A stretch of 64,000 nt of DNA from Minisyncoccia bacterium (GTDB lineage Bacteria > Patescibacteriota > Minisyncoccia > Phycocordibacterales > UBA918): assembly GCA_046293175.1 (NCBI GenBank), contig JBKBPM010000001.1, positions 593,408-657,407 on the forward strand, read 5' to 3'. The position numbers were made by a program, and so were the translations under genes. Below the pieces are notes generated by a model. That model searched no databases, was not told where the DNA came from, and worked only from the letters and a program-made list of their open reading frames with translations. Of the stretch, positions 26,563 through 42,716 are shown piece by piece (position 1 is the stretch's first letter; each line of letters starts with the position of its first letter).

Positions 26563-26616
26563 TTTTTTGTCTGGTTACTGCTCTCAGCAGGTATGCAATT
26601 TCTCGGAATAGTACCT
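26563..26616. repeat. Left copy of a roughly 51-54 bp direct repeat that brackets the accessory island
   Basis: ttttttgtctggttactgctctcagcaggtatgcaatttctcggaatagtacct versus 42666-42716 tttttgttctggctactgctctcagcaggtatgccttttcagaatagacct (about 85% identity). In each copy it begins in the T-tract of a different terminator hairpin. A shared 13-mer gacgcgtctcgtg lies at 26819-26831 and 42730-42742. Confidence 0.6.
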
Positions 26617-26888
26617 ATGATTTCTACCGAAACTTAAGGAGTCTAGGACACCCCCTTTAGAGAGTTCGTGCCCATGACTCGTTCTTAAAATGCTTTGGAA
26701 AATATAACGATTTTAAGAGTCTCGATAGCTCTCACTTGATTGCTGGCCGTCTCGTGTTAGAACCGTGGCCGGTCAAGCCCTGCTTACTCCGTTTGGCTTC
26801 GTTTTAGGTCCTTGGAACGACGCGTCTCGTGTGCTTCAAAAAGTGACAAAAGTGACACAGGGAGGCACCTGAAAGTTACACGCTACTG

Positions 26889-27296
26889 TCACCTTCTCCT
26901 GTAGTGCGTTCGTACTCCCGTGGTTAACAAAATGAACCCAACGATCGAAAAAGAGACTATATAAACAATCGTTGCAATGATTGGAAAGTAATCGTTTGCA
27001 TATAGTTCAGGCCCTCCGATCAGGCCAATGACGAATAGGATCCCGAAATAGAAATAGTTGTAGAGAACGCTTCCTAGTACTCGCCACCTGCCTGTGATTA
27101 AGTACCTTGCTATGGCGTATATCAAAATAGCAATCAGGGCACCTAGTGTTGCTAACCAGTGCTGCACTAAGAACGAAAGAAGTATCTCCCAGAAAACACG
27201 GTAGGTATGGATAGTCGCTTCCGCAACACCGTTCATGAGTGTCTCCAAGGATTCCTTTACGAAGTCAGGACCAAGCGGTGTGGAAGTTGAGTTCAT
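26889..27296 (-). CDS. Small polytopic membrane protein; third gene of the CBASS-like operon
   Basis: 135 aa with three or four TM helices. Its start is 3 nt after the SLATT-like stop. Confidence 0.5.
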   Translation of the reverse strand: MNSTSTPLGPDFVKESLETLMNGVAEATIHTYRVFWEILLSFLVQHWLATLGALIAILIYAIARYLITGRWRVLGSVLYNYFYFGILFVIGLIGGPELYANDYFPIIATIVYIVSFSIVGFILLTTGVRTHYRRR

Positions 27297-27298: not shown

Positions 27299-27793
27299 CT
27301 ATGCAATCGTTTCTTCTCGCTTAGCGAGCTTCTTCACTGCCTTTTGGTAAGCCCATTCCTCTGTTGGAGGAGTAAGTAGGATGAGCTGGTTATATGCCTC
27401 AGAAAGCTTGCACACTTCCTTATACAATTCCTGCTCCGAGTGGAAGGACGCGAATGACTCATGTAGCGCACGCGCCCTATGCTTCACAACTGTAAAGCTT
27501 TTGGCCGAGTTCAAGTTCTCGTAGTACGACTTATGCGGACTTACAATACTGCTGGTCGCCGTAACAACGGCAGAGACAACGGTGAGCCAGCCCCACCATG
27601 CGGGTATCGCCTGCCCTACAACGAGCAAGCCAGAGAGTGAAGCGATGATCGCGGGAACGACCTCAAACCAGAAAGCCATTGTCTTGCTCCTCGACGCGAG
27701 TATGTGGTGCGCTTCAGCAGTGTGTCGCGCATTGTCCTCGATCGTCTGACATTCCTTTTTTAAGTTATCAATATTATTCATAAGTTGATCCAA
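27299..27793 (-). CDS. SLATT-like 2TM effector protein
   Basis: 164 aa with an N-terminal helix, two adjacent TM helices (AFWFEVVPAIIASLSGLLVVG / WWGWLTVVSAVVTATSSIV), and a C-terminal helical region. It overlaps the nucleotidyltransferase stop by 20 nt, which suggests translational coupling. Confidence 0.55.
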   Translation of the reverse strand: MDQLMNNIDNLKKECQTIEDNARHTAEAHHILASRSKTMAFWFEVVPAIIASLSGLLVVGQAIPAWWGWLTVVSAVVTATSSIVSPHKSYYENLNSAKSFTVVKHRARALHESFASFHSEQELYKEVCKLSEAYNQLILLTPPTEEWAYQKAVKKLAKREETIA

Positions 27794-29126
27794 TTGGTAC
27801 TAATACTTTGCCGATAGCAACGCATACATTGTCCTTCACGACGTAACACTCGACGTAGTGTTCGCCATGGTAGAGCGTGCTCTCTGTCTTCTCCTGTGAT
27901 CCCGCATCGGGAGTAATCTCACCACGCAAGCCGTCGGCTTTCTTGGCTTCTTCTCCGAAATTGCGGACTTTCCAAAAAATGCGGTACGGACCAGGCACAT
28001 TTATCTTCTGCACGCGGAACTTCAGCTTCTTTCCTTTCAGCAAAGGAAAACGCTTCTGAAGGAAGTCGGTGAGCCAGCCCGTCCGAAAGCCGTTTTGGGT
28101 AACTTCTGCGTCTATGGATACTTCGTACCCAGAAAATAACCTGGTCGGTATGCCATATTTGCTCTCAAGGAATTCTTCTTTCGCAGATGGATACTCGCGC
28201 GTTAGCTGTGCGATCTTGTCTGGAATCGGATCCACCGCAATCGCACGATCAGCCACCGTCGGGAAGTCTGCACCAAATATCTTCTGCCACTCGAGAGATG
28301 CGTCACGCAACTTATCCGCAGCTTCGTACTCGATTGCCTTCTCAGCACGAGAAACAGCCGAATCGACCCGCGAAGCCCATGCGTCTCCGAGGCTGATCGA
28401 CTGGCTAGAGCCGAGCGAGTGGACTAAACCATGACGCTTTGACCGAAGATACTCGAAGAATCCGAGCACGAGTTGTGGGTACCGCTCGTTCACTTGGTTG
28501 TTGTATCTGTCGCGCAGGTAATCAATGACGAGAATCTCAAGAATGTATGACTTGAGCGGAACGCCACAATTCCTCACCCACGCCTTAAGCATACGAACGA
28601 GCGACTTCGTGTGCTTCGTCTGCGTACTTGAATCATGAATCGCCTTGATCTCTGCGCTCGGGTTCCATATGTCCCACGATCCGCCCTTCTCGGTATTTGG
28701 AATGCGATATTCGCCTGAGGGCAGTCGCCATGCGGGAAGAAGCTCGACAGTATGCGTGCTTTCCGCGAAGCTAATGAGGATCACCTTGCCCCACGCCTTT
28801 ATGCCTTCTGTCGTACTGAATCGGTCTTTCAAAATACCTCGCACTTCCTGAAGTAGTTGGGACTGCTTGTTTCCGCTGAGAGCGTCGAACCGCGCAAACT
28901 CAGAGTCTGGCATCTTGAAGAGCAGATCAATGTCTTTCGGGGGACGAATATTCGTGTGCTTACCATACGAACCGATGAGGAGCTTCGTGCTTCCATCGTA
29001 GGTAGTCGTCGGGTAGTACTTGCCATGCAAAGTTTCAGAGACGTTCTTGATCTTCGTCTCAGCGTCCGCCTTTTGTGGGTCGGTTAGCTTGATGTTCTCT
29101 AAAAATTTGCGAAAGGCGGAATCCAT
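27774..29126 (-). CDS. cGAS/DncV-like (SMODS/CD-NTase) nucleotidyltransferase with a C-terminal extension of about 150 aa
   Basis: Pol-beta NTase motif GSYGKHTNIRPPKDIDLLF (GS…DxD) with the third acidic residue near …HTVELLP…. A helical domain follows, then an unassigned C-terminal domain. Confidence 0.7.
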   Translation of the reverse strand: MDSAFRKFLENIKLTDPQKADAETKIKNVSETLHGKYYPTTTYDGSTKLLIGSYGKHTNIRPPKDIDLLFKMPDSEFARFDALSGNKQSQLLQEVRGILKDRFSTTEGIKAWGKVILISFAESTHTVELLPAWRLPSGEYRIPNTEKGGSWDIWNPSAEIKAIHDSSTQTKHTKSLVRMLKAWVRNCGVPLKSYILEILVIDYLRDRYNNQVNERYPQLVLGFFEYLRSKRHGLVHSLGSSQSISLGDAWASRVDSAVSRAEKAIEYEAADKLRDASLEWQKIFGADFPTVADRAIAVDPIPDKIAQLTREYPSAKEEFLESKYGIPTRLFSGYEVSIDAEVTQNGFRTGWLTDFLQKRFPLLKGKKLKFRVQKINVPGPYRIFWKVRNFGEEAKKADGLRGEITPDAGSQEKTESTLYHGEHYVECYVVKDNVCVAIGKVLVPIGSTYE

Positions 29127-29192: not shown

Positions 29193-29603
29193 ATGGGCAT
29201 GGAGTATCGACTCGAAGCAAAACCTACGGTCCTCGAGAAGGGGCAAAAGTATCGAATAATTCAGATCACTGATGTCGCGCATCACACAGCAAAGAAAACT
29301 CCTACCCCTTCCGTAGGCAAGAAAATAGAGAAAACGCCTGACGCAACGCCTGGACGAATCTACAGGCCTACGGATTTAGGTGTAGTACTTGATCCTAAAG
29401 CGTATATCCTCAAAATGCTCGGGGAGGACCCAGATTTCCAAAAGCTTGTGCGGGACGAGGCAGCAAAAGGGGTAAAGGTTGTCCTTGCCTTTCCCAAGGA
29501 CGGTGTCCCGGCAGAGTACGGAAAAGACACGATTGAGTTTCTGAAAAGTAAGAACGGCAAGCGTGTGCTTCGAGGGCTTGCCAAGGAAAAGCGTGAGGAA
29601 TAA
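29193..29603 (+). CDS. Hypothetical Lys-rich protein, divergent from the CBASS-like operon
   Basis: 136 aa with no recognisable domain. Candidate regulator or phage protein. Confidence 0.35.
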   Translation: MGMEYRLEAKPTVLEKGQKYRIIQITDVAHHTAKKTPTPSVGKKIEKTPDATPGRIYRPTDLGVVLDPKAYILKMLGEDPDFQKLVRDEAAKGVKVVLAFPKDGVPAEYGKDTIEFLKSKNGKRVLRGLAKEKREE

Positions 29604-29771
29604 AATAGTGACATAGCGTAGTAAAAAGTAGAGTAGCGTATCGCCTTCTGGCCATGCCTATTCCGCGCAAGAAGTGAGTTGAGGTTATCGAGCCTCTTCC
29701 TCGTTTCGTGTGTGGAATAGGCCTTTTCTATATCCATACATCCTTACAAATCGTAACGGTTTTAAAGGAGT

Positions 29772-31055
29772 ATGAAAAAACTCTCATGGACGACGGTCCA
29801 AAAACGTGTAAACGATCTCATTCCCCAGGAGATCAATCCCCGCAAGATCAGCGACAAGCAGATGTCCGATCTCAAGCGGAGCCTTAAGAAGTTCAATCTG
29901 GTGGAGATCCCTGCCGTGGATTATGACGGCACCATTCTCGCAGGACACCAGCGCATCAAGGCGCTCCAGCTTCTTGAGCGCGGAGACGAGACAATCGACA
30001 TCCGTGTGCCGAATCGCAAGCTTACGGAAAAGGAAGCCAAGGAATACCTGATCGGCTCTAACAAGCTCGGCGGAGACTGGGACTTCGACATCCTGAAGTC
30101 CTTTGAACTCGACACGCTCTCATTCGCTGGATTCGATGATATGGAGCTTGCGAAGTTCTGGGACAACGATAACGAGACCAAAGAGGATTCGTTCGATATC
30201 GAGAAGGAGCTGAAGAAGATAACCGATCCCAAGACAAAGCTCGGCGACATCATCCATCTCGGCAAGCATAAGATCCTCTGCGGGGACTCGACTGACCCAA
30301 AGAACCTTGCGCGCCTCCTCGGTGAGGAGCGAGCCAGCATGATTTACTCAGATCCCGTCTACAACATCTCTATCGACTACGACGGAGGCATCGGCGGAAA
30401 GAAGGACTACGGAGGAAACGTGAACGACACGCGTACCTACGAGGAGTACAAGGGGTTCATCAGAGATAGTCTCACAGCCGCACTCGCGGTTTCCTCTCCC
30501 AATACTCACGTCTTCTACTACTGCGATCAGGTCTACATCGGCTTGATTCAAGAAATCTACCGCTCGCTTGGCATCGCGAACAAGCGCGTATGCCTGTGGC
30601 TCAAGAACTCGCAGAATCCCGTACCGAAGGTGTACTGCAACAAGGCATACGAACCTGCCGTATACGGCACGCGCGGAAAGCCATACCTTGCCGAAGCTGT
30701 AAGCGATCTCAACGAAGTGATGAATAAGGAGTTCACCACCGGCAACGAGCTGGTGACGCAGGTCGATGACTTCCTTGAAATCTGGACGGCAAAGCGACTT
30801 GCCGCGAAAGACTACAAGCACGCTACGTCAAAGCCGATCACGCTCCACGAGAAAGCGATCAAGCGTTGCACGAAGCCGAATGACATTATTCTCGACAGTT
30901 TCCTCGGTTCGGGCAGCACCCTCTTGGCCGGAGAACAGCTCGGACGACGCGTATACGGTTGTGAGCTTGAGCCAAGGTTCTGCGACCTGATCGCGGCTCG
31001 CTTCGAGGCGCTTACTGGAATTAAGCCGGTCATCGAACGCCATGAAGAAAAATAA
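29772..31055 (+). CDS. ParB-like N-terminal domain fused to an N6/N4 DNA methyltransferase (phage-type orphan MTase)
   Basis: ParB_N region (…EIPAVDYDGTILAGHQRIKALQL…). MTase motif IV-like IYSDPVY. Motif I region TSKPITLHEKAIKRCTKPNDIILDSFLGSGSTLLAG. Confidence 0.8.
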   Translation: MKKLSWTTVQKRVNDLIPQEINPRKISDKQMSDLKRSLKKFNLVEIPAVDYDGTILAGHQRIKALQLLERGDETIDIRVPNRKLTEKEAKEYLIGSNKLGGDWDFDILKSFELDTLSFAGFDDMELAKFWDNDNETKEDSFDIEKELKKITDPKTKLGDIIHLGKHKILCGDSTDPKNLARLLGEERASMIYSDPVYNISIDYDGGIGGKKDYGGNVNDTRTYEEYKGFIRDSLTAALAVSSPNTHVFYYCDQVYIGLIQEIYRSLGIANKRVCLWLKNSQNPVPKVYCNKAYEPAVYGTRGKPYLAEAVSDLNEVMNKEFTTGNELVTQVDDFLEIWTAKRLAAKDYKHATSKPITLHEKAIKRCTKPNDIILDSFLGSGSTLLAGEQLGRRVYGCELEPRFCDLIAARFEALTGIKPVIERHEEK

Positions 31056-31515
31056 ATTCCAGAAGCAGTTTTTAGACGAACTGCGGAAAGTCCCGATTGT
31101 ACAGGTCGCGTGCGAGAAGACAGGACTTTCCCGCAACAGCGTATACCGTTGGCGAAACGAAGATGCTGAGTTCCGCAAGGCAATGGAAGAGGCCATCGCC
31201 GAGGGCGAGGAGCTCGTTAACGACATGAGCGAAGGACAGCTCCTCACGCTTATCAAGGAGAAGAATTGGTCAGCGATCAGCTTCTGGCTCCGCAAGCGTA
31301 ATCCGAAGTTTAAGGACCGCATTGAGGTGGAAGTCGCGCCGAAACAGGAAGAACTTACGCCCGAACAGGAAGAGACGGTGCGCGAGGCTCTTCGCCTTGC
31401 CTCTATGGATCCCATTACCAATCTAAAAGAAGCCAATCATGGAACACAGCCCGCTACCGCCTCATCTGATGGAAACGATGATGAAGGATCGGAAAGTACG
31501 AACGGCAATCACTAA
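31042..31515 (+). CDS. Phage terminase small subunit-like HTH protein
   Basis: HTH (…ACEKTGLSRNSVYRWRNEDAEFRKA…) with an acidic C-terminus. It lies directly upstream of, and overlaps, the TerL gene. Confidence 0.5.
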   Translation: MKKNKFQKQFLDELRKVPIVQVACEKTGLSRNSVYRWRNEDAEFRKAMEEAIAEGEELVNDMSEGQLLTLIKEKNWSAISFWLRKRNPKFKDRIEVEVAPKQEELTPEQEETVREALRLASMDPITNLKEANHGTQPATASSDGNDDEGSESTNGNH

Positions 31516-32911
31516 GGAAAGCCACTGGTACTTCTTCCACTTCTACTTTGCCCACTATGTGAAGTATCCGACAGCCCCGTTCCAGAAGGAACTTATGGGA
31601 CTTTCGGAACGTGAGGATGTGAAGAATCTCGTCGTGGTTGCCTTTCGTGGATCGGCAAAGTCCACGATCTTCACCATGTCCTATCCGATCTGGGCAATCC
31701 TTGGAAAGCAACAAAAGAAGTTCATCGTCATCCTCTCACAGACTCAGGCTCAGGCTAAGCAGCACATGATGAACCTGCGACGCGAGCTTGAAAATAATAC
31801 GCTTCTCAAAAGTGACCTAGGATCGTTCCAAGAAGAGCGAAACGAATGGGGCGCGACATCCCTTGTGTTCGGAAGACATGGTGCGCGCATCACAGCTGTT
31901 TCGACCGAACAGAGCGTTCGCGGTCTGCGCCATAACCAGCACCGCCCCGATCTGATCATCGGAGACGACCTAGAAGACATCGCTTCGACCAAAACACGCG
32001 AGGGTCGCAACAAGACGTATGAGTGGCTCACGGGAGAAGTGATTCCTGCTGGAGACCGAAACACGAGGCTCATTGTGATTGGAAACCTCCTGCATGAGGA
32101 CTCGCTCATCATGCGGCTCAAGGAAGACATTACTGACAAGCGCATTGATGGAATGTTCCGAGCGTACCCACTTATGGAGGGGCAGAGCATCCTGTGGCCG
32201 GGAAAGTACCCAACCATGGAGGATATCGAAGAGGAACAGAGAAAAGCGGCGAACGACTATGCGTGGCAGCGAGAATATCTCCTCAATATTGTTCCAGCCG
32301 AAGACCAGGTTATTGATCCCGCATGGATTCAGTACTACGACGAAATTCCGCCTCGTGTAAGGGTCTTCAAAAACGACACCTACATGACGAATCTGGAAGT
32401 ACGTATCGGTGTCGATCTTGCGATCTCAAAGAGGGACACCGCCGACTATACCGCGATGATCCCAGCTCTCCTTTACGAGGCGAAAAAAGGATACGACATC
32501 TATATTCTTCCGAAGATCATCAACAAGCGACTTTCCTTCCCTGAGACGGTTGAGACATGCAAGATCATACACAACTCGTATAAGGATGTTCCGCACTGGA
32601 ATGGTCCTGTGTTCGTGATCGAGGACGTGGCGTATCAGAGTGCGCTACCTCAACAGCTCAAGGCGGAAGGGCTTAGGCAGATACACACCGTAAAGCCAGG
32701 AAATACCGATAAGCGTGCGCGCCTCATGCTTACCGCGAACTTGATTAAGACTGGTGTCGTGAAGTTTCCGCGACAAGGAGCGGAGCAGCTAATCCAGCAG
32801 ATCGTACACTTCGGTGTCGAGAAGCATGATGACCTCGCGGATGCTTTCTCTGCCCTTGTCTTGGACGCACTTGCCGACCCGCCAAGTACGTTTCGTATTT
32901 TCTTTATTTAA
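31469..32911 (+). CDS. Phage terminase large subunit
   Basis: ATPase Walker A-like AFRGSAKST and Walker B LIIGDDLED. C-terminal RNaseH-like nuclease motifs (…VDLAISKRDTADYTAM…; …HDDLADA…). The start is uncertain between 31439 and 31481. Confidence 0.8.
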   Translation: METMMKDRKVRTAITKESHWYFFHFYFAHYVKYPTAPFQKELMGLSEREDVKNLVVVAFRGSAKSTIFTMSYPIWAILGKQQKKFIVILSQTQAQAKQHMMNLRRELENNTLLKSDLGSFQEERNEWGATSLVFGRHGARITAVSTEQSVRGLRHNQHRPDLIIGDDLEDIASTKTREGRNKTYEWLTGEVIPAGDRNTRLIVIGNLLHEDSLIMRLKEDITDKRIDGMFRAYPLMEGQSILWPGKYPTMEDIEEEQRKAANDYAWQREYLLNIVPAEDQVIDPAWIQYYDEIPPRVRVFKNDTYMTNLEVRIGVDLAISKRDTADYTAMIPALLYEAKKGYDIYILPKIINKRLSFPETVETCKIIHNSYKDVPHWNGPVFVIEDVAYQSALPQQLKAEGLRQIHTVKPGNTDKRARLMLTANLIKTGVVKFPRQGAEQLIQQIVHFGVEKHDDLADAFSALVLDALADPPSTFRIFFI

Positions 32912-33005
32912 GAGAATATGTGCAAACTACTTAAAGCGACCATGCGACGTTTTCTTAGTTCTGCATAGTCTATGCACCACCAACTGGTCTGGCATCAATA
33001 TACAT

Positions 33006-34325
33006 ATGCGAACGGATCAAATTTCAGCCCTTATTGGGCAGGCACCTGTCATACCTACAACAAAGGTTAAATACGTCCTGTATGCCCGAAAATCGACCGA
33101 GCAGGACGAGAAGCAGGCACTATCTATCGAATCCCAAGTAAAGGAAATGTTGGCGATAGCGGAACGAGAAAATCTTGAAATTGTAGATATACGCAGAGAA
33201 GCACATTCGGCCAAAGATTCAGGACAGCGACCAGTGTTCAAAGAAATTCTTGAGGATGTACGAAGAGAACGATTTAATGGAATTCTAGTATGGCATCCAG
33301 ACCGTCTAAGTAGAAATGCTGGCGATCTTGGATCTGTTGTAGATCTAATGGATCAGAAGCTCTTAGTACAGATACGCACTTACGGACAAACGTTCACAAA
33401 CACACCAAGCGAGAAGTTTCTTTTGATGATTCTCTGTTCTCAAGCAAAGCTAGAGAATGATAATAAAAGTATTAACGTAAAGAGAGGTCTCAAGACTAGA
33501 GTTGAAATGGGACTATGGCCTGCCCCTGCCCCAACAGGCTATCTCAAAGAAAAACGAATAGATCGAAAGTGCGAGACCCTAATAGATCCAGACCGAGGAC
33601 CAATCATCAGAAAAGTATTTGAGAAGGTCGCTTATGAAAAGTGGTCAGGACGAAAGGTATACAACTGGCTAAAGTTTGATCTCAACTTCAAGACCGCTGC
33701 TGGAAATAAAAATCTAACGGTGAGCAACATTTACTGCATTCTAGAGAATCACTTTTACTACGGTGTATTTGAATATCCCAAGAACTCTGGAAATTGGTAT
33801 CAGGGAAAGCATGAGCCTCTAATCACTAAAGAGCTATTTGAGCAGGTTCAAGAGCAAGTAAAAAGCCAATTCGTCAGGTCTGAAGGTAAGGAGTTTGCTT
33901 TTACTAAACTTATGACCTGTGGCTTATGCGGGTCAGGCATTACAGCCGACGAAAAGTTCAAGAAGCAGAAGAACGGCAATATACACCGGCACGTTTACTA
34001 CGGCTGCACCAAACGGAGAGATCCGAACTGCAAATGTGGCTATATCAACGAAATAGATCTCATTAAGCAATTTGAGGACTTAATGGATGTCATTGATATC
34101 GACGAAATCGGCATTAAAGAAAAGATGAAGAATGAGATTGAACGATTCAAGAAATTCCAGAGAATATTTTTAGGAAAATCTATTCAGGTAACAGTGGCAG
34201 ATGTAGATATACGCAATTACTCTAAATATTTGTTGAGGGAGGGTAAAGATATAGAGAAACGCGAACTACTCGGTTGTCTTAAAGGTCAAATTTTACTCCA
34301 ACACAAAACGATTTCGCTTAAATAA
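33006..34325 (+). CDS. Large serine recombinase (resolvase/invertase-type catalytic domain, recombinase domain, zinc ribbon)
   Basis: Catalytic region KYVLYARKSTEQDE…LSIESQ, a recombinase domain, and a Cys cluster CGLCGS…YYGCTKRRDPNCKCG. The start was chosen at MRTDQ. Confidence 0.85.
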   Translation: MRTDQISALIGQAPVIPTTKVKYVLYARKSTEQDEKQALSIESQVKEMLAIAERENLEIVDIRREAHSAKDSGQRPVFKEILEDVRRERFNGILVWHPDRLSRNAGDLGSVVDLMDQKLLVQIRTYGQTFTNTPSEKFLLMILCSQAKLENDNKSINVKRGLKTRVEMGLWPAPAPTGYLKEKRIDRKCETLIDPDRGPIIRKVFEKVAYEKWSGRKVYNWLKFDLNFKTAAGNKNLTVSNIYCILENHFYYGVFEYPKNSGNWYQGKHEPLITKELFEQVQEQVKSQFVRSEGKEFAFTKLMTCGLCGSGITADEKFKKQKNGNIHRHVYYGCTKRRDPNCKCGYINEIDLIKQFEDLMDVIDIDEIGIKEKMKNEIERFKKFQRIFLGKSIQVTVADVDIRNYSKYLLREGKDIEKRELLGCLKGQILLQHKTISLK

Positions 34326-34326
34326 G

Positions 34327-36354
34327 CTAAAGCACGTTTTTTCGAAGCAAAGACGCGTTAATTGCTACAATAACGGTTGAGAGTGACATAAAAACGGCAG
34401 CTACCGCTGGTTGGAGCATGATGCCGTACATCACAAGCGCACCTGCCGCAATCGGCAAGGCGATGATGTTGTACCCAGTGGCCCAGAAAAGATTCTCGAT
34501 CATTTTGCGGTACGTGAGTCGAGAAAGGTGGATAATCTTTGGTATGTCGCGCGGGTCGTTCTTTACAAGAATAATGCCCGCTGATTCAATCGCCACGTTC
34601 GTGCCTGCCCCGATAGCAATACCGAGATCTGCTTGTGTGAGCGCTGGCGCATCATTGACTCCATCACCCACCATAGCAACACGTTCACCACGCGCTTGTA
34701 GTTTCTTCACAGTATCCGCTTTCTCTTCAGGAAGTACATGGGCAAAGTATTCATCGATGCCAAGTTCTTTAGAAACCCATGCGGCCACATCTTCAGCGTC
34801 GCCCGTAATCATAGCAATGCGTACACCCATATCTTTGAGTTTGGAAATTGCTTCTCGTGATTCCTCACGAATGACGTCAGCAAGTGCAATGCTTCCAACC
34901 CAGCTGCCGCCTTCGACCACGTGGATAACCGTCTTTCCCTCAAGTTCGTGATTTTGTATAACCTTCTGTTGATCAGGAGGGATGACAATACCACTCTCCG
35001 CAACAAACGAAGATGACCCTACAAAGACTCGTTTGCCATTAATGTCTGCTTGAACACCCTTTCCACGAATGTTCGTGAAGGCTGAAGTTTGAGGAAGGAT
35101 TGTTTCCTCCGCATACGCATGAGCGACAATCGCACGGCCAATGGGATGTTCAGAAGTTTTGTTTGCACCCCCCGCAAGTGACAGTGTTTTGTTTACGTCA
35201 CCCATGATTGCCATAACACCAAATGATCCTTTGGTGAGGGTACCTGTTTTATCAAACAGCACCGTGGTGACATTCCGAGCCGCTTCAAGAGCCAATCGTC
35301 TCTTTACGAAGAAGCCGTTTCTCGAAGCCATTGTGGTTGAAATAGAAGCAACAAGTGGAATCGCGAGACCAAGCGCATGAGGACAGGCAATCACCAAGAC
35401 CGCCACGAGCCGCTCAACTGCAAATCCAAACGGTTGTCCAACAGCAATCCACGAAGCAAACGTAATGAATCCAGCAATTACTGCAAGGAGTGTAAGGTAA
35501 AACGCTGCACGGTCTGAAAGAAGCTGCAGCTTTGACTTTGAAGATTCTGCCTCAGCCACCAACCGCATGATTCCCGCAAGAAAGGTGTGTTCACCTAGTT
35601 TATCGAGACGAATTTCCAGACTTCCATCGCCATTAATGGAACCCGCGATAATCTCCACACCCTCTTGTTTTAGTACAGGGCGTGACTCTCCGGTAATGAG
35701 TGATTCGTCCACTTCCGATTCACCCTTAAGAACAACTCCATCAGCTGGAACTCTTCCGCCAGGGCGTACGAGCACCACATCACCTTCTTGTAGTTCGGAA
35801 AGAGAGACGGTAACGGGAGTGCCATTCCGCATCACTTCGGCAGTATCAGGGAGTAGTTTTGCCAACTCACGAAGTGCTCCTTGTGCTCCTTTGACTGCCT
35901 TCATTTCTATCCAGTGGCCAATGAGCATGACACCCACGAGGGTAGAGAGTTCCCAAAAAAGTGTCATGCCTTCGCCCACCAAAACAACCCCAATACTGTA
36001 GAGGTAGGCGGCACTGATAGCGATTGCAATCAGTGTCATCATGCCCGGCATCCGCATCTTAAGTTCGTCCCAAGCTCCTTTGAGAAATACAAAGCCACCA
36101 TAGAAGAACACGATACTCCCGAGTACAGCTTGTACATAATGAGAGCCAGGAAAAGCCGGAGCGGACCAACCAAGGAAGGCTCCGGGTAAATCCGAGTAGA
36201 GAATGATGGGGATTGTTAACACGAGTACTACCCAAAACTTCTTGAGGAAGTCCTCCGTATGATGACCTGCATGTTTATCATGAGTACCCCCGTGATCGTG
36301 GTGATGTCCGTGATTATGATTCATGTTTTTCTTTTTCGTTATGGTCGTGGCCAT
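34327..36354 (-). CDS. copA: Copper-translocating P1B-type ATPase (CopA-like) with a His-rich N-terminus
   Basis: CPH motif (…VIACPHALGLA…), DKTGTLT, GDGVNDAPAL, and an N-terminal MNHNHGHHHDHGGTHDKHAGHH. The exact start is uncertain. Confidence 0.85.
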   Translation of the reverse strand: MATTITKKKNMNHNHGHHHDHGGTHDKHAGHHTEDFLKKFWVVLVLTIPIILYSDLPGAFLGWSAPAFPGSHYVQAVLGSIVFFYGGFVFLKGAWDELKMRMPGMMTLIAIAISAAYLYSIGVVLVGEGMTLFWELSTLVGVMLIGHWIEMKAVKGAQGALRELAKLLPDTAEVMRNGTPVTVSLSELQEGDVVLVRPGGRVPADGVVLKGESEVDESLITGESRPVLKQEGVEIIAGSINGDGSLEIRLDKLGEHTFLAGIMRLVAEAESSKSKLQLLSDRAAFYLTLLAVIAGFITFASWIAVGQPFGFAVERLVAVLVIACPHALGLAIPLVASISTTMASRNGFFVKRRLALEAARNVTTVLFDKTGTLTKGSFGVMAIMGDVNKTLSLAGGANKTSEHPIGRAIVAHAYAEETILPQTSAFTNIRGKGVQADINGKRVFVGSSSFVAESGIVIPPDQQKVIQNHELEGKTVIHVVEGGSWVGSIALADVIREESREAISKLKDMGVRIAMITGDAEDVAAWVSKELGIDEYFAHVLPEEKADTVKKLQARGERVAMVGDGVNDAPALTQADLGIAIGAGTNVAIESAGIILVKNDPRDIPKIIHLSRLTYRKMIENLFWATGYNIIALPIAAGALVMYGIMLQPAVAAVFMSLSTVIVAINASLLRKNVL

Positions 36355-36511
36355 GGTGTCCATGATGCATAAACAGATGCATAAAGAGACACCCCAAGAG
36401 GAACGCAAATGGCAGATACGGCGCAAGGTGTTCTTGGTGGTTGGTTACTGCATACACACCTGCCACGATGACCAGTACTATAAGTGTATACCGAATATAT
36501 TTTGAATTCAT
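36314..36511 (-). CDS. Small His-rich membrane protein (DUF2933-like) upstream of copA
   Basis: 65 aa with one TM helix and a C-terminal HLFMHHGHHGHDH. Confidence 0.4.
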   Translation of the reverse strand: MNSKYIRYTLIVLVIVAGVYAVTNHQEHLAPYLPFAFLLGCLFMHLFMHHGHHGHDHNEKEKHES

Positions 36512-36531
36512 ATTTTTACTTTTACTTGTAA

Positions 36532-37287
36532 TTACTCCACAATGACAACCCCTTCGGCAGCGGGATTAAGATGATCGTGGTAATTCCATGTGCCTGGTTT
36601 GTCGAACGTATACATGTATTGATCTCCAGTCTTGAACTGATCAAATGTAGGAAGAATGCTGTGTTCCGGATGTTCATTTGACGCCACCCACATTTCTTTT
36701 GTACTTTCATTCACGAAGTGCACCATTGTACCGAGTGGTACTGAAACTTCTTTCGGTTCAAAGCCACTGTCGGTATAGCGAATAGTTGCCATAGCGGAAT
36801 TTCCCATCATGTGTATAGCGTCGGCATTTCCCGTATTTGTGGTGATTGAAGTAGGTACGGGAGCACCTGTTGCGACATACACGGATAGAGGCATTCCATC
36901 AACCTCGAGAGGTTGATCAAGGTCATTAAAGACCTTGTCATCACCCGCATCTTCGTACGCCATCACTATTAGTTCCTCACCGCCCTCGTAGAAGTCACCG
37001 AGGGGGATTGCAATACCATTATGAGTTCCTGTCGTAAGGTATTGGCTAATCTCAACGATTTGACCGAGACGACCATTATCAATGGAGCGGACCGCGAGGA
37101 ACCCTGGCTTTAGGAGTGTGACCGAATCAACAGTTACTACAGTGGTAGCGTTCTGCGCTGAAACCACTAGTTCTCCCTCTGCATTAGTTGCCATTTTTGG
37201 TGCTTCGCTGTGGGGTTGCTTAGTCGTGAGGAAAAAGACGATTCCTATACCGACTACCACCACGACTCCACTAATAATCGCTCTCAT
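36532..37287 (-). CDS. Secreted/membrane-anchored cupredoxin-like domain protein
   Basis: N-terminal TM with a C-terminal plastocyanin/EfeO-like cupredoxin fold signature (…GTWNYHDHLNPAAEGVVIV). Confidence 0.45.
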   Translation of the reverse strand: MRAIISGVVVVVGIGIVFFLTTKQPHSEAPKMATNAEGELVVSAQNATTVVTVDSVTLLKPGFLAVRSIDNGRLGQIVEISQYLTTGTHNGIAIPLGDFYEGGEELIVMAYEDAGDDKVFNDLDQPLEVDGMPLSVYVATGAPVPTSITTNTGNADAIHMMGNSAMATIRYTDSGFEPKEVSVPLGTMVHFVNESTKEMWVASNEHPEHSILPTFDQFKTGDQYMYTFDKPGTWNYHDHLNPAAEGVVIVE

Positions 37288-37292
37288 ATCAA

Positions 37293-38861
37293 TTATTCTG
37301 TTACAGCAAACTCAAACATCATTCCTGCTTCGAGATGTTCAGCAATGTGACAATGCGCCATCCATTCGCCGGGGTTTGTGGTGTCGAGTAGGATATCGAC
37401 ATACTGTCCAGCTGGTACCATCACCGTGTCTTTCCAAACCAAGTTGTCGTTTGTTGTTCCATTTTCATTGACTACCAAGAATCGCTGACCGTGGAAGTGA
37501 ATTGGGTGTTGCATTGGATGAGCAGAATTTGCGTCATTAGTGATACGGACCTTCACCTTGTCACCAGATTTGAAGCTCCACGCAATATCCATATTCGTCT
37601 GCCCGGTTGCCTTGTCGGTGATCTTCCACTTTGTCATATCCTTGGTCGCCATCTGGTTCATCATGGCCATGTCAGTATCCTCCCATTCAATGCCATCTTT
37701 ACTCACCGTATTAGCCATCATTCCTCCCATCATTGATCCATCGGGCATCCTGTGTCCACCCATGCCTCCACTCATACCGCCCATCATGTCGATGGTGAGA
37801 TTGAGTTCTTTATCGACTGGTTTGGCGAGGTATTCCCGATACGGGTCAATGCTTGCTTTCGCAACTTCGTTGGTGCGAAGCGTGCCAAAGATATCTCCGT
37901 AGTATGGAGACGCAACCCCTCCCGAGACAGTAACTTTGCCAAGTTCATACGTTTTTTCAGGCGTGCTATGGAGAAGTGCATACGTTCCTTCGTTAGCAAA
38001 TAGCACTTCCACAACTACTCGCTCAGATGGTCCGAGAATCACTGAGTCTTTCCATTCTTCTCGCTCCGTCGCCCCAGCATCTCCGCCGACTAATTTCAGC
38101 TTCGCACCCTTAATACTGAAGTTGAATGGTCGCGCGTTTGCGGCGTTTGTGAGATAGAAGCGAATCACTTCACCCTCTGTTGCTGTGAGCTCGTAATCAG
38201 TCTCACCATTTACGAGCATCACGTTTCCGTAACGACCCATGAGGGTACGATCTGCTTCCTTTTTGCTCAGATTTATCTTTCCGTTCTCAATGAGAATGTC
38301 GTCCAGAATAAGTGGTACCTCGCGGTTTACTTCATTCCAATACTTCTCATCGGTAGCTACCACAAGATAGTTCCCGTATAAGCCGAGCTCCTGTTCCAAG
38401 TCTTCACGAACATGCGGGTGGTACCAGTACATTCCGGCGTCAGGGAATTTCAGTTTGTACGAGAACGTCTCACCCGGTTTCATCTCCTCTTGAGTCGACT
38501 GTGAACCATCAAACTCATTGTCCATGCGCACGCCGTGCGAGTGGAGAAGTGTGTTCATGTCGGTACCATTCTTGAAGTTGATGGTCACCTCTGCACCTTG
38601 CGGTACTTTGATTAATGGTCCGGGTATTGAGCCGTTGTATGCGAGCATTTTGTATGACACGCCATTGATGTTTTTTTCGACGTAGCTGGCAGTGAGGTCA
38701 TAGGTGTCACCATTTTTAAGTTCAACAGTCTCTGATGCTTTTGCAGGTTCAGCTTTTGTAAGGGCAGTGCTCGCACCAGGTATAGTTCCTCCTTTTGATA
38801 GCAGAATGCCACCAACGACAAGAACTACGCCGAGCACTACCGCAATAAGTGTTTTATTCAT
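37293..38861 (-). CDS. Multicopper oxidase (CueO/laccase-like) with a Met/Gly-rich insert
   Basis: Copper ligand motifs WYHPH, HPIHFHG, and HCHIAEHLEAGMM. Met-rich segment MMGGMSGGMGGHRMPDGSMMGGMM. Confidence 0.85.
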   Translation of the reverse strand: MNKTLIAVVLGVVLVVGGILLSKGGTIPGASTALTKAEPAKASETVELKNGDTYDLTASYVEKNINGVSYKMLAYNGSIPGPLIKVPQGAEVTINFKNGTDMNTLLHSHGVRMDNEFDGSQSTQEEMKPGETFSYKLKFPDAGMYWYHPHVREDLEQELGLYGNYLVVATDEKYWNEVNREVPLILDDILIENGKINLSKKEADRTLMGRYGNVMLVNGETDYELTATEGEVIRFYLTNAANARPFNFSIKGAKLKLVGGDAGATEREEWKDSVILGPSERVVVEVLFANEGTYALLHSTPEKTYELGKVTVSGGVASPYYGDIFGTLRTNEVAKASIDPYREYLAKPVDKELNLTIDMMGGMSGGMGGHRMPDGSMMGGMMANTVSKDGIEWEDTDMAMMNQMATKDMTKWKITDKATGQTNMDIAWSFKSGDKVKVRITNDANSAHPMQHPIHFHGQRFLVVNENGTTNDNLVWKDTVMVPAGQYVDILLDTTNPGEWMAHCHIAEHLEAGMMFEFAVTE

Positions 38862-38876
38862 ACATAGTTGATAACG

Positions 38877-40019
38877 CTAATTAATAATTTTACTTCCCCC
38901 ACTCCAGATACTGATACCATTCGGCATATCGCCAACAGGGATCCTAGAAATTTCTCTGTTAGTATCCGTATCAATAATTGTTACGTCATCGCCGAGCAAA
39001 TTAGTAACATACGCGCGAGCTCCGTCTTCCGATACGACAATTCCGTGTGGCGCAGAACCGGCAGTAATAGTTTTGTCGACTATTTTTCGTCCGATATCTA
39101 TCCGATACACAAGATTTCCTGTCGGTTGATCGAAGTAGTAGCCTTGGTCAGCCACGTACAGGTATCGTGAGTCTGGGGTCGGGTAGATTTGCACAGGTCC
39201 ACGAGATCCTTCGGGAAGGGTTATGACCCCTTGTTCATTATTTTTCCGGTTGAGCCATACGATTTGTTTGGTGTCATACACTGACGAAAATGCGTATATA
39301 CCATCTTGGGTGACGGCTGTTTGGACACCAGCTCCAGGCAATGTGATGTTTCGTACGATATTGGTCTCTGTATCGAGGACAGCCATCCCTTTTCCATCAA
39401 TAAGCGCGATGAATACTTCCGTGCCATCCGGTGTCACTCGAAGTCCGTGTGGCCCACTTGCTTCACCGAGCGCAATTTCGCGTATAATTCTGCGACCCTC
39501 AACGTCTATCACGTAGACCTTGCCCTTTTCTTGTGAGGTCACGTATGCGGTTTTTGCGTCAGGAGAGGTGACGACGTGTGCAAGGTGGCTGTCGGTAGCG
39601 ACGGGAATTGAGTAAACAATTGTGTCAGTTACTGGGTCGATGATAAACAGCTTGTCGGAATTCTGTCCATGACCCATATCCGGCATTGCATCATCTTCCA
39701 TGTCCATGCCTTCCTCGACGTTTGCCGTCACCAGCACCTTCTTCCCGTCCGGAGCTACCTGCACATTATGTGCCATGTAGCGGACTGTTTCTCCGTCAAC
39801 CTTTTCAGACAAGTCGATGGTTGCAATAACTTTTGTACTCTTAGAATCAATTACAGAGACCTTTCCTTCGCCCTCGAGCGCAACGTACACTTTTTCACTC
39901 TGACTACTGACAGAAGTAGTTATTTCTTGAGGCGTATTTATATCCCTAGCTGACAGAGTCCAAAAAGCACCTCCAATAAGAACAATTGCTGCAATTGTGC
40001 CTAATACGTATTTATTCAT
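38877..40019 (-). CDS. YVTN-family beta-propeller repeat protein
   Basis: Repeated …AYVT…G.V.VID… units of about 40 residues (YVALEGEGKVSVID; AYVTSQEKGKVYVID; AYVTNLLGDDVTIID). Confidence 0.7.
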   Translation of the reverse strand: MNKYVLGTIAAIVLIGGAFWTLSARDINTPQEITTSVSSQSEKVYVALEGEGKVSVIDSKSTKVIATIDLSEKVDGETVRYMAHNVQVAPDGKKVLVTANVEEGMDMEDDAMPDMGHGQNSDKLFIIDPVTDTIVYSIPVATDSHLAHVVTSPDAKTAYVTSQEKGKVYVIDVEGRRIIREIALGEASGPHGLRVTPDGTEVFIALIDGKGMAVLDTETNIVRNITLPGAGVQTAVTQDGIYAFSSVYDTKQIVWLNRKNNEQGVITLPEGSRGPVQIYPTPDSRYLYVADQGYYFDQPTGNLVYRIDIGRKIVDKTITAGSAPHGIVVSEDGARAYVTNLLGDDVTIIDTDTNREISRIPVGDMPNGISIWSGGSKIIN

Positions 40020-40449
40020 AATGTAATTCGATCTTATCTCCATCCTTCATCTCATAATTTTCATACTCTGTGTTTGGTTCGCCATTCACCGTCATAGTCA
40101 CATTCTGTCCGAACTCTCGAAAGTCCTTACCCCATACCGCAAAGAATTTTCCAAGACGAGTATCTTCGCGGGTCACTCTGGCTGGGTATTCGAGATGTAT
40201 GATCGGAGCATCATCGTGGGTATGCATTGGCTGATGGACGGCACCAATGCCGACGTTTTGAGGTATCTCAATCTGTTCACCTTTTACGAATATCTTGAGT
40301 TCAGGATGGGTATGGATTCCACGCATGGAAAGAATATTTGAGTCTCCTGATGCTACTTGTTTTGTCTGATTTGCTTTTGCCCACCATATGAGTCCTATTG
40401 CCAACACAAGGATGGCAATAATGACAATAGTGAACGAATGTTTTTTCAT
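40012..40449 (-). CDS. Membrane-anchored His-rich hypothetical protein (putative periplasmic metal-binding)
   Basis: N-terminal TM with HTHPE / HQPMHTHDD motifs. Confidence 0.4.
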   Translation of the reverse strand: MKKHSFTIVIIAILVLAIGLIWWAKANQTKQVASGDSNILSMRGIHTHPELKIFVKGEQIEIPQNVGIGAVHQPMHTHDDAPIIHLEYPARVTREDTRLGKFFAVWGKDFREFGQNVTMTVNGEPNTEYENYEMKDGDKIELHYE

Positions 40450-40976: not shown

Positions 40977-40979
40977 GAG

Positions 40980-41747: not shown

Positions 41748-41823
41748 GTGAATAGAAGTTAGTAGGTAATGCCATAACGGCAAAAAAGCAGAGTGCAGAA
41801 CACTCGCTCACATGAATGAGACG

Positions 41824-42644: not shown

Positions 42645-42672
42645 AAATCGCCCCATGAGGGGCGATTTTTGT
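42645..42672. terminator. Bidirectional rho-independent terminator
   Basis: AAAAATCGCCCC-atga-GGGGCGATTTTT. Confidence 0.7.
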
Positions 42673-42716
42673 TCTGGCTACTGCTCTCAGCAGGTATGCC
42701 TTTTCAGAATAGACCT
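42666..42716. repeat. Right copy of the direct repeat that brackets the island (pairs with 26563-26616)
   Basis: See the left-copy entry. It lies 47-97 nt 3' of tRNA-Gln. Confidence 0.6.

Follow-up and report, generated by a model that had tools for sequence, protein, structure and literature searches.

The window analysed here is a 64,000-nucleotide stretch of DNA from a Minisyncoccia bacterium. It carries plus-strand genes encoding a ParB-N domain fused to a DNA methyltransferase, the small (TerS) and large (TerL) terminase subunits, and a large serine recombinase. An earlier note on this DNA had named the same four genes, and all of them are present at the coordinates it gave. Together with a leader RNA, they form the core of the element, which is joined by a small upstream gene in some subfamilies (Table 1).

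Table 1 Features of the island and its borders in the window.
Feature	Position	Strand	Basis or remark
Left copy of the 58-nt imperfect direct repeat; probable left border region	26564..26620	.	84% identical to 42666-42720, E 8e-12
Left-end conserved non-coding element, ~170 nt	26721..26896	+	nhmmer profile
Cargo, 135-aa multi-pass membrane protein	26889..27296	-	Downstream of CBASS effector
Cargo, CBASS 2TM/SLATT-type effector	27299..27793	-	PADLOC 2TM 1.6e-17, RTasSLATT 2.7e-22
Cargo, CBASS CD-NTase (SMODS + AGS_C)	27774..29126	-	Pfam, PADLOC
p136, small conserved protein, 136 aa	29193..29603	+	Precedes core in one subfamily
Promoter-like site and leader	29578..29735	+	Promoter match, covariation, folding energy
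Core gene 1, ParB-N fused to N6/N4 DNA methyltransferase	29772..31055	+	Pfam, PHROG
Core gene 2, TerS, N-terminal HTH	31042..31515	+	PHROGs
Core gene 3, TerL, ATPase and RNase H-like nuclease, intact	31439..32911	+	phrog_38 6.6e-82
Palindrome TGCATAG-N-CTATGCA, putative operator-like site	32962..32976	.	~30 nt upstream of recombinase start
Core gene 4, large serine recombinase (integrase)	33006..34325	+	Pfam, phrog_95
Probable cargo between recombinase and tRNA	34327..42267	-	Pfam
Right end of island	42666..42762	.	Repeat copy, motif, inverted repeat
tRNA-Gln(ttg), probable integration target (attR side)	42763..42836	-	ARAGORN and Rfam; 3' end faces island

The first core gene matches the Pfam family N6_N4_Mtase (4.5e-30) and the DNA methyltransferase family phrog_498 (7e-82), with a ParB-like match (phrog_620, 5.8e-25) across residues 7-153, and its relatives bear the precomputed domain PF02195 (ParB_N). 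TerS was recognized by phrog_4044 (1.5e-12) and five other TerS PHROGs. TerL has the defining architecture of a large terminase, an N-terminal ASCE ATPase with Walker A/B motifs and a C-terminal RNase H-like nuclease with an acidic triad. Its match to Terminase_6C (1.7e-4) falls just under the Pfam cut-off, which several long relatives exceed, and the ATPase domain of T7 gp19 is a weak PDB match. The TerL start is probably M11 or M14, given the length of relatives (472-490 aa) and the invariance of M14. The Walker A (G71, K74, S75, and T76), Walker B (D176, D177, and E179), and nuclease residues (D326, E395, D464, D465, and D468) are invariant in 20 diverse members, so that the mutated active site named in the earlier note as a sign of a pseudogenized relic was not observed.

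The recombinase ORF was annotated at 32814-34325, and its true start is the ATG at 33006, giving a protein of 439 aa (440 aa in relatives). It has all three Pfam domains of phage-type large serine recombinases, namely Resolvase (8.3e-23), Recombinase (4.7e-14), and Zn_ribbon_recom (2.6e-8), and matches the integrase family phrog_95 (1.7e-62). Conserved non-coding DNA (32912-33005) lies between TerL and the recombinase. The palindrome within it is invariant in six of seven aligned loci from different lineages, amid otherwise variable DNA.

Upstream of the core, the region's best promoter match (TTGCCA-17-TAAAAT, 29578-29606, 10/12) precedes a conserved leader of ~110 nt, which includes the box GCGTAGTAAAAAGTAGAGTAGCGTATCGCC. 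A long hairpin (~29656-29721; MFE -46.7 kcal/mol, z = -5.8) is followed by a U-run, so that the leader looks like a terminated leader RNA. Six of the 21 predicted pairs show compensatory changes, and many G-U pairs fit the plus strand only. Leader nucleotide identity between classes (75-92%) is above that of the adjoining p136 protein, and an Rfam search of the leader returned no family. The p136 protein occurs in 32 loci, and none of its 42 homologues has a Pfam family. A structure search on this ORF, as the earlier note had proposed, gave a confident fold (AF2 model, pLDDT 84.5, pTM 0.72) for which Foldseek found no structural neighbor in PDB or BFVD; our guess is that p136 is a regulator or a recombination directionality factor. 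The left-end element is a cluster of GTGACA sites ending in AAAAAGTGACAAAAGTGACAC-N14-AAAGTTACA-N6-TGTCAC (TGTAAC in most relatives). It was detected by nhmmer in 45 loci. In all of them it is on the plus strand, lies 0.5-8 kb to the left of the methyltransferase gene, and bounds variable cargo. This element shows no conserved RNA fold (alifold -2.5 kcal/mol) and is a candidate pac site, operator, or origin.

The island probably extends from ~26.56 kb to the tRNA-Gln at 42.76 kb, including the CBASS genes and a copper cluster. The borders that we place at about 26564-42762 give ~16.2 kb; the roughly 16 kb suggested in the earlier note is plausible, but its borders may differ from ours. A terminator-like hairpin (26546-26559) lies just before the left repeat copy. 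At the right end, the second copy (42666-42720) is followed by the motif CGACGCGTCTCGTGCGC (42729-42745), which occurs again at 26818-26834, and by the inverted repeat CTCGTG-N13-CACGAG abutting tRNA-Gln. In many loci, a motif of the type CTCGTGC...GCACGA(G) abuts the 3' end of a Ser, Glu, Asn, or Gln tRNA, and the CTCGTG / CACGAG-type inverted motifs at the island ends are candidate att features.

The recombinase gene does end 1 nt before copA (34327-36426, minus strand), as the earlier note had observed in calling the att site not obvious; the probable answer is integration on the side of a tRNA, here the tRNA-Gln located 8.4 kb past the recombinase. An equal layout is seen in the close relative L009, whose tRNA-Gln is 7.1 kb from its recombinase. 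In 25 loci, the recombinase has a minus-strand tRNA on its right, the 3' end of which points toward the recombinase side, and recombinase clades track the type of the neighboring tRNA. Three elements (L027, L067, and L071) have exact copies of 19-22 nt from the tRNA 3' end as their boundaries; they span 14.7-18.6 kb and contain no structural genes. A GTCACG segment of ~150 nt follows the tRNA fragment in three loci and also stands alone beside a tRNA (L124). The exact attL is uncertain by ~200 bp, because a search of the window's left border found no tRNA fragment and the GTCACG segment can stand alone. Searches for a circular contig of the element and for an empty integration site of the window's strain found neither.

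Variable cargo flanks the core on both sides and often consists of anti-phage systems, as well as metal or disulfide resistance genes. The left cargo in the window is a type I CBASS. Its CD-NTase (Pfam SMODS 5.4e-27 and AGS_C 1.7e-40; PADLOC cyclase 4.6e-118) adjoins the effector, which also gives a weak match to Pfam SLATT_4, and there is no Cap2/Cap3 or HORMA/TRIP13. The sole other gene of the operon encodes the 135-aa membrane protein, which has no match in Pfam, PHROG, or PADLOC and a 41% identical relative in the equivalent slot of L070. Restriction-modification, Shedu, and DGR systems are found at other loci, and the cargo of the complete elements includes CBASS, type I and type III R-M, Shedu, and a Dda-like helicase. 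In the window, the genes between the recombinase and the tRNA encode a copA P-type ATPase, a DUF7282/cupredoxin protein, a multicopper oxidase, a YncE-like beta-propeller, two ORFs without assignment, a DsbA-like thioredoxin, and one more such ORF. We infer that this copper cluster is probably island cargo and not host flank, since relatives of the element lie beside tRNAs and the window's tRNA-Gln lies past the recombinase. Homologs of copA, Cu-oxidase, DsbA/DsbB, and DUF305 adjoin the element or sit inside it at many other loci, and in the repeat-bounded L027 they lie between the recombinase and the tRNA. LexA/CI-like S24 repressors form the commonest family beyond the core (28 of 119 loci), and XRE and ImmA pairs occur in others; the window copy has no recognizable repressor.

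The absence of portal, capsid, and tail genes, remarked on in the earlier note, was borne out by Pfam and PHROG searches of every ORF between 26.9 and 42.3 kb. An intact temperate Caudoviricetes prophage has portal, major capsid, and tail genes by its terminase; these are absent within +/-10 kb of the terminase in the 119 loci, where only the core families are widespread and no portal, capsid, or tail cluster recurs. The three complete repeat-bounded elements contain no virion, lysis, or recognizable replication genes, and no primase or replicase was found in the window island, in these elements, or among the recurrent clusters. As a positive control, the same searches did detect portal, protease, and capsid genes in the sister phages described below.

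Two peptide patterns recovered the cassette, with its order kept, from at least 384 species-representative genomes, almost all of them Patescibacteria. TerL homologs at 65-92% identity number more than 4400, under names including Pacebacteria, Taylorbacteria, and Gracilibacteria, and the family comprises 463 clusters of 50% identity at E <= 1e-30. Synteny is kept in ~110 of the 119 loci, even where TerL identity is as low as 43%: the ParB-N/methyltransferase is present in 113 and TerS in 109, and the recombinase follows TerL in 83. Across 80 species-representative loci, TerL is 57-93% identical. Substitution patterns indicate that the core genes are under strong purifying selection, with dN/dS of ~0.05 or less (methyltransferase 0.045 against L009; TerS 0.05); for TerL, pN is 0.046 and synonymous sites are saturated. 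A search of the full-text literature found no description of the cassette, which is apparently an undescribed and widespread mobile island of the ultra-small CPR/Patescibacteria. According to an explicit statement in a 2025 preprint, whether nested parasitism of the satellite type reaches the viruses of CPR bacteria is unknown.

In a tree built, like the others in this analysis, by neighbor joining without support values, the TerLs of the elements are monophyletic, and their sister group consists of Paceibacterota-associated tailed phages of ~32 kb. This tree and a full-length phage relative were the comparisons suggested in the earlier note. Such a relative exists in L203/L204, where the order is methylase-TerS-TerL-portal-capsid-tail tube; compared with the window proteins, L203 is 43.7% identical in TerL, 28% in TerS (E 1e-13), and 33% in the methylase. 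In L129 (TerL 38% identical), portal, protease, and major head genes follow TerL. Portal relatives lie on contigs of 28-36 kb, two of which are named Candidatus Paceibacterota, and the nearest TerLs of cultured phages include those of Mu-like phages. The methylase-TerS-TerL order is homologous in the sister phages (L203/L204, L201/L202, and L129; TerL 38-44%) and, more distantly, in Mu-like phages. Unlike in the element, where the recombinase comes next, TerL is followed in the phages by a portal fused to a Mu-F domain, a protease/scaffold, an HK97-fold capsid, connectors, and a tail tube, and the sister phages' methylase lacks the ParB-N domain found in the element. The phage contigs L201/L202 and the element loci L002/L001 come from the same two samples, which is only suggestive of a helper relation.

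The earlier note had left open a satellite, a PICI-like element, and a decayed prophage. The satellite-like reading is the best supported, because complete elements lack virion genes and the sister TerL clade belongs to real phages with portal and capsid; the other two were rejected. We consider it reasonably probable that the element is a helper-dependent, satellite-like integrative island, widespread in Patescibacteria. Helper-dependent encapsidation is deduced from the absent virion genes, the element's own terminase, and the sister phages in the same phylum and samples. A more tentative proposal, to which we give somewhat less than an even chance, is that capsid-less satellites with TerS, TerL, a ParB-methylase, and a serine integrase occur throughout CPR/Patescibacteria, parasitize the ~32-kb Paceibacterota phage lineage, and act as a major vehicle of defense and metal-resistance genes in these minimal genomes. 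Such satellites may start packaging straight from the integrated state, at a left-end pac site. They would be the first satellites to be described in CPR bacteria, and no earlier satellite type would rely on a large terminase of its own while lacking its own capsid.

We propose that the island would rest next to a tRNA as an integrated phage satellite. Infection by a helper of the sister lineage, or SOS cleavage of the LexA/CI-like repressor present in many members, would trigger transcription past the leader terminator into the packaging genes. The methylase would mark element DNA, TerS would bind a pac site, with the left-end GTGACA cluster as its candidate, and the element's own TerL would cut the DNA and, competing with the helper, pump it into procapsids that the helper has made. 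In a new cell, the serine recombinase would insert the element at a tRNA site, and the host would gain cargo (CBASS and copper resistance in the window) and possibly interference with the helper. We know of no capsid-less satellite with its own TerL, and why this element keeps one is a matter of conjecture. Headful packaging normally requires concatemers; the lack of a conserved replication gene in the element is at odds with this need.

Among the alternatives, a domesticated packaging module that serves the host, with its own spread secondary, is unlikely but survives best. It could act as an anti-phage device, in which a decoy terminase cuts or mis-packages phage DNA while the methylase marks self, or it could package neighboring chromosomal DNA in situ, like lateral transduction or gene transfer agents. 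The cassette always lies among defense genes, and its TerL is conserved to a degree unusual for a gene of mobile elements. Mu-like phages, which are among those with the nearest cultured TerLs, package integrated DNA starting at a left-end pac site, and the element has both a conserved site cluster at its left end and resistance genes downstream in the packaging direction. However, PADLOC models match none of TerS, TerL, the recombinase, and p136, and the constant linkage to a serine integrase, the tRNA-side position, and the tRNA-end repeats point to a self-mobile unit. A defense role is also compatible with helper-dependent transfer, which it accompanies in known satellites, and packaging of any kind still requires phage capsids.

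Slightly less likely again is an autonomous integrative element without virions, which would use TerS and TerL in another DNA transaction (such as the processing or resolution of replication intermediates, or end cutting) and would be transferred through natural transformation or some other route that these bacteria commonly use. The helper phages are only candidates, no replication or transfer genes were recognized, and the element is stable enough to occur in hundreds of MAG chromosomes. Yet every characterized TerS/TerL pair that we know of acts on a portal-bearing procapsid, the ATPase and nuclease motifs are both intact, and the packaging module of the sister clade is that of a conventional phage. 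That the element is a complete virus with structural proteins too divergent to recognize is improbable: many cargo ORFs have no family assignment and the p136 fold is novel, but each unassigned family is confined to a minority of elements, the 14.7-18.6 kb elements are filled by the core and recognizable defense genes, and the same searches readily detect structural genes in the sister phages. In related phages, the late operon begins with the same methylase-TerS-TerL order, but chance survival of its left part beside an integrase in a decayed prophage is highly improbable, being refuted by the gene order kept in hundreds of species, the identical truncation point with the recombinase after TerL in ~83 loci of many classes, the strong purifying selection, the invariant Walker A/B and nuclease residues, the conserved non-coding control elements, and the monophyly of the element TerLs.

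CPR/Patescibacteria account for a large share of bacterial diversity and have genomes of ~1 Mb; to our knowledge, almost nothing is known of gene exchange in them or of parasitism of their phages. If the satellite-like reading is true, the element would solve the problem of satellite packaging in a new way, with its own TerL and no capsid. A simple five-part signature would pick out mobile islands, together with their cargo, by the hundred in CPR genomes, where they are now either scored wrongly as viral in IMG/VR or lack annotation, and a concrete helper candidate would make the satellite question testable. For a phylum that has almost no genetic tools, potential ones would come from the serine integrases, whose tRNA-side targets can be predicted, and from the conserved DNA and RNA regulators.

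The element fits none of the PICI, cf-PICI, PLE, and P4 types. It resembles PICIs/SaPIs as an integrated island of ~15 kb, within their range of ~10-18 kb, with its own TerS, anti-phage cargo, no virion or lysis genes, a repressor in many members that would respond to phage or SOS, and a packaging operon that probably depends on a late-phase signal. PICIs, however, have a tyrosine integrase at one end, a primase/replicase with an origin, the packaging-redirection and capsid-size genes cpm, ppi, and rpp, and hijack packaging through TerS or a redirection protein without their own TerL. The element has a large serine recombinase as its sole integrase, a full-length intact TerL beside TerS, a ParB-N/methylase core, no conserved replication module, none of these redirection and capsid-size genes, and hosts of another phylum, and a PICI by definition was rejected on these grounds. 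Like the element, cf-PICIs encode both TerS and TerL, but their gene set extends to major capsid, portal, protease, head-tail connectors, and HNH, and they steal tails only; Pfam and PHROGs found no capsid, portal, protease, or connector genes in the element.

PLEs of Vibrio cholerae share with the element integration via a large serine recombinase; they excise in response to a directionality factor that the helper encodes, and they act against the helper. They differ in having their own replication initiator RepA and no terminase, in integrating into a repeat element and not beside a tRNA, and in being confined to one species and its phage ICP1, whereas the element has a terminase pair, no detected Rep, and Patescibacteria as hosts. 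There is no sequence kinship between them beyond the recombinase superfamily. The constitutive-looking promoter, short structured leader, terminator-like hairpin, and packaging genes follow the layout of lambdoid late-operon control (PR'-6S RNA-tR', read through by Q) and of helper-activated satellite packaging operons. Unlike in lambdoid control, no Q-like or other antiterminator was identified for the element; there is no sequence similarity, and read-through is hypothetical. The P4 core consists of a tyrosine integrase, a primase, and psu/delta/sid, tycheposons use tyrosine or serine recombinases and no terminase, and pipolins have PolB; what the element shares with P4-like satellite hotspots, tycheposons, and pipolins is a mobility core with exchangeable defense slots and tRNA-side integration.

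All four genes of the core, namely a ParB-N domain fused to a DNA methyltransferase (hereafter methylase), TerS, TerL and a large serine recombinase, were found by Pfam and PHROGs searches where the earlier note had placed them. The methylase additionally matches the ParB-like phrog_620 (5.8e-25, residues 7-153). The recombinase starts at the ATG at 33006, not at 32814, because 32912-33005 is conserved non-coding DNA containing an invariant palindrome; TerL probably starts at M11 or M14. An exact-sequence look-up of the window TerL gave no match, and more than 4400 homologues were found, the best 120 of which are 65-92% identical and come from Patescibacteria where named. When each species was represented by a single genome, 384 genomes proved to have a relative. 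Nearly all of the 80 loci fetched have the genes in the order methylase-TerS-TerL, and in most of those reaching far enough the recombinase follows TerL, either directly or past an insert of 1-8 kb. Mostly the same order is seen in 31 IMG/VR contigs whose TerL is only 43-63% identical. When every ORF within 10 kb was clustered in 119 loci, the widespread families were TerL (118 loci), methylase (113), TerS (109), recombinase (83) and p136, a 136-aa protein encoded at 29193-29603 (32), and no others; a LexA/CI-like S24 repressor (28) and a small secreted protein (27) came next. No structural gene family recurred in this set. On this comparative evidence, the cassette represents a conserved family and not a relic.

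Features of the window and of related loci (positions refer to the window unless a locus is named)
Feature	Position	Strand	Details
Left element	26721-26896		170 nt; in 45 loci, constant orientation, outer edge of left cargo slot
CBASS 2TM effector	27299-27793	minus	PADLOC 1.6e-17
CBASS CD-NTase	27774-29126	minus	PADLOC cyclase 4.6e-118
Promoter and leader	29578-29735	+	best sigma-70-like promoter match of the region
ParB-N/N6/N4 DNA methyltransferase fusion	29772-31055	+	Pfam N6_N4_Mtase 4.5e-30; phrog_498 7e-82
TerS	31042-31515	+	six TerS PHROGs, top 1.5e-12
TerL	31439-32911	+	phrog_38 6.6e-82
Large serine recombinase (ORF)	32814-34325	+	all three LSR domains
Palindrome TGCATAG-N-CTATGCA	32962-32976		invariant, upstream of recombinase
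copA	34327-36426	minus	ends one base past recombinase ORF
tRNA-Gln(ttg)	42763-42836	minus	end of copper/disulfide cluster
Repeat-bounded element L027			22-nt tRNA 3'-end repeat; spans 18.3 kb
Repeat-bounded element L067			20-nt tRNA 3'-end repeat; spans 14.7 kb
Repeat-bounded element L071			19-nt tRNA 3'-end repeat; spans 18.6 kb
GTCACG segment, L067	3422-3560		
GTCACG segment, L071	241-400		
GTCACG segment, L027	1602-1790		
GTCACG segment, L088	6046-6179		
GTCACG segment, L124	2273-2400		reverse complement

The family also shows variants. One subfamily (L011-L014, L017-L021, L031, L078, L105, L117 and L119) carries a second N6_N4 methyltransferase of about 250 aa between the methylase and TerS (Pfam 2e-24; L020 8738-9511). 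Some TerL homologues are broken by LAGLIDADG/Hom_end intein-like inserts (two among the long representatives, P0248 and P0263), and the C-terminal extensions of about 200 aa in some long representatives have no Pfam family; as clues to function, both were uninformative. A few loci lie in MAGs labelled Gammaproteobacteria, Bdellovibrionales, Flavobacteriaceae, Nanoarchaeia, Dysgonamonadaceae or Methanoregula (e.g., L032, L036, L039, L068, L081, L082 and L087), which are probably binning or labelling artefacts.

The best TerL matches in GenBank phages are 22-28% identical and include Mu-like phages, in which portal and capsid genes follow TerL; in the PDB, a weak match to T7 gp19 was the only one. 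A further IMG/VR scan used distant TerLs as seeds; the methylase-TerS(-recombinase) context was kept where TerL was at least 42% identical to that of the window. In contig L129 (38% identical), the genes after TerL encode a portal with a fused Mu-F domain, then a protease and a major head protein. Members of this portal family occur on contigs 28-36 kb long, of which two carry the label Candidatus Paceibacterota. A full-length phage relative, which the earlier note had suggested seeking, is provided by one of the phages with this portal family (contigs L203 and L204), where methylase, TerS and TerL precede portal, capsid, connector and tail tube genes. Compared with the window proteins, its TerL is 43.7% identical, its TerS 28% and its methylase 33%, and the phage methylase lacks the ParB-N domain. 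Another phage of this kind, on contigs L201 and L202 (32.6-32.8 kb), shares its two source samples with element loci L002 and L001. A neighbour-joining tree without support values places all element TerLs in a single clade, and its sister is the phage group of L129 and L201-L204. From this topology, the core either descends from the packaging genes of a lineage of tailed phages or has a common ancestor with them. That lineage appears to infect the same phylum and is the obvious candidate for a helper.

Cargo genes occupy slots on both sides of the core. The left slot holds a type I CBASS directly upstream of the core in the window, with a 135-aa membrane protein after the effector (minus strand), and other CBASS genes in L003/L015 (CD-NTase and Cap15), L027 (SMODS and HNH-SAVED) and L031; L005 has a 1268-aa protein with DUF5677, L001 Hypoth_Ymh with XRE/ImmA, and L071 a Dda-like helicase. 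The right slot, after TerL or the recombinase, contains a type I R-M system with an embedded Shedu gene in L071, a type III R-M system in L067, PLD-SNF2 and Eco57I-like enzymes in L105, and elsewhere bAvd with a reverse transcriptase (DGR-like). Such DGR-type cassettes lie inside or beside elements in approximately 8-11 loci (clusters 8 and 16; e.g., L031 20001-21390, L043 14213-15265 and L115 5791-7071). Genes for copA, Cu-oxidase, DsbA/DsbB and DUF305 recur in this slot, and downstream of its recombinase the window has a copper/disulfide cluster of copA, a DUF7282-cupredoxin protein, a multicopper oxidase, a beta-propeller and a DsbA-like protein. The terminase pair might itself serve the host, in defence or in transduction, which we consider unlikely.

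The recombinase has a tRNA gene (Ser, Gln, Glu, Asp, Trp or Asn) 0.1-8 kb to its right in 25 loci; in all of them the tRNA is on the minus strand, and its 3' end therefore faces the element. A recurrent palindromic motif, (A)CCTCGTGCTAGCACGA, abuts the tRNA; its form in the window is CTCGTG-N13-CACGAG. In three loci, the tRNA 3' end (acceptor strand to T-loop) is repeated exactly at the far left, and the units so bounded contain the core and defence genes with no virion-like genes. A life cycle that proceeds without virions is a reading that we find slightly less likely than a host role. In a neighbour-joining tree without support values, which is only suggestive, recombinases cluster by tRNA type better than TerLs do, and three Glu-side elements share one recombinase clade while their TerLs are scattered, suggesting that target choice lies with the recombinase and that modules recombine. 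The methylase-TerS-TerL module occurs twice, 7-27 kb apart, on single contigs (L119, 14-2077 and 7546-11521; L106/L110, one 39-kb IMG/VR contig), which points to tandem or multiple elements per genome, consistent with reuse of the same tRNA site.

No tRNA-Gln fragment was found at the left border of the window island. What was detected is a 58-nt repeat (26564-26620 and 42666-42720; 84% identical, E 8e-12), together with a 17-nt motif common to the left element and the right end, and the closest relative, L009, shares only the left element, core, recombinase region and tRNA-Gln. Because of these features, we infer an island of 16.2 kb at approximately 26.56-42.76 kb, in which the copper cluster is cargo. 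Type IV pilus genes adjoin it directly on the left, and that side also has an ECF sigma factor and an IS200-type transposase. The pilus operon (21520-26264, minus strand; a PilB-like ATPase, a PilC-like platform protein and three prepilin-type proteins, one of 501 aa) was dropped as an island part, being outside the conserved left element and missing from the islands of relatives, and appears to be host DNA. The IS200/IS605-type Y1 transposase (18271-18720, minus strand; Y1_Tnp 2.9e-31) lies some 8 kb from the left end of the island and adjoins a 620-aa CarD_TRCF-domain gene in a stretch of higher GC (0.55). A look-up of the neighbouring PilB returned just one contig with the same arrangement and hence no empty integration site for this strain; a terminal-overlap test found no circular contig among all loci collected. 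When metagenome contigs were searched for the predicted attP-type junction, L124 alone came up. In the three bounded loci, the tRNA fragment is succeeded by a GC-rich segment (about 125-160 nt) that begins with GTCACG and has no Rfam match. A 12-bp inverted repeat (GGnAGGGATTCG...CGAATCnCTnCC) flanks the segment, and the arms of the repeat co-vary with the T-arm of the neighbouring tRNA. Our first reading of this segment as the left terminus of the element was weakened by L124, where it is found by itself, with a tRNA-Ser 3' fragment on one side and an intact tRNA-Ser on the other; the exact left crossover is therefore uncertain by about 200 bp. Possible identities for the segment are a mini-element, an integration scar and a structured RNA.

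Pfam and PHROGs searches detected no portal, capsid, tail or lysis families among the ORFs at 26.9-42.3 kb. The p136 ORF, which the earlier note had singled out for a search for hidden capsid or portal genes, is not a hidden capsid gene: its confidently predicted structure (pLDDT 84.5, pTM 0.72) has no neighbour in the PDB or among predicted viral proteins, and its 42 homologues are all unannotated. That the element is an unrecognised virus is a reading that we consider very improbable. Over the core, the window and L009 are 82% identical in nucleotide sequence, with dN/dS of 0.045 for the methylase and 0.05 for TerS, and a pN of 0.046 for TerL, at which synonymous sites are saturated. A prophage relic is scarcely credible, since the core is conserved across the family under purifying selection, and TerL keeps its Walker A, Walker B and acidic nuclease residues unmutated and invariant across 20 diverse members; the decayed prophage, one of the options in the earlier note, is therefore set aside. 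Protein identity to L009 is mosaic (87-93% for methylase, TerS and TerL, 76% for the recombinase and 34% for p136). The G+C content is 0.50-0.54 in the core (29001-33000), 0.42 in the recombinase and about 0.46 in most of the window, a contrast that fits a mosaic, horizontally acquired origin.

Conserved non-coding pieces, none of which matched Rfam (gathering and E <= 1), frame these genes. The left element ends in GTGACA-AAA-GTGACA and a GTTACA/TGTAAC inverted repeat. A consensus RNA fold was sought and not found, so we treat it as a cluster of protein-binding DNA sites; its candidate roles are pac site, operator array and origin. The leader is 75-92% identical in nucleotide sequence across classes and more conserved than the adjoining p136 protein. 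Its 21-bp hairpin has six compensatory pairs and many G-U pairs that fit the + strand alone, followed by a U-run, and it resembles the terminated leader that precedes packaging genes in lambdoid late operons. The leader with this hairpin and U-run (29615-29735) may qualify as a new motif, either a cis-regulatory RNA or a small RNA, particular to the p136 subfamily of elements; an IMG/VR scan for phages sharing the leader returned two element contigs and nothing else.

We propose that the element is a phage satellite. Induction by a helper phage or the SOS response would be followed by read-through of the leader and methylation; TerS would recognise a pac site, TerL-driven packaging would fill helper procapsids, and the recombinase would mediate integration in a new host. 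Full-text literature searches turned up no description of the cassette, and a 2025 preprint states that the existence of satellites for viruses of CPR bacteria is unknown. The satellite-like part of the earlier proposal is retained, while membership of the PICIs proper is not: although the element does not show the defining features of PICIs, cf-PICIs, PLEs or P4, in function it would be most like a PICI-type satellite.
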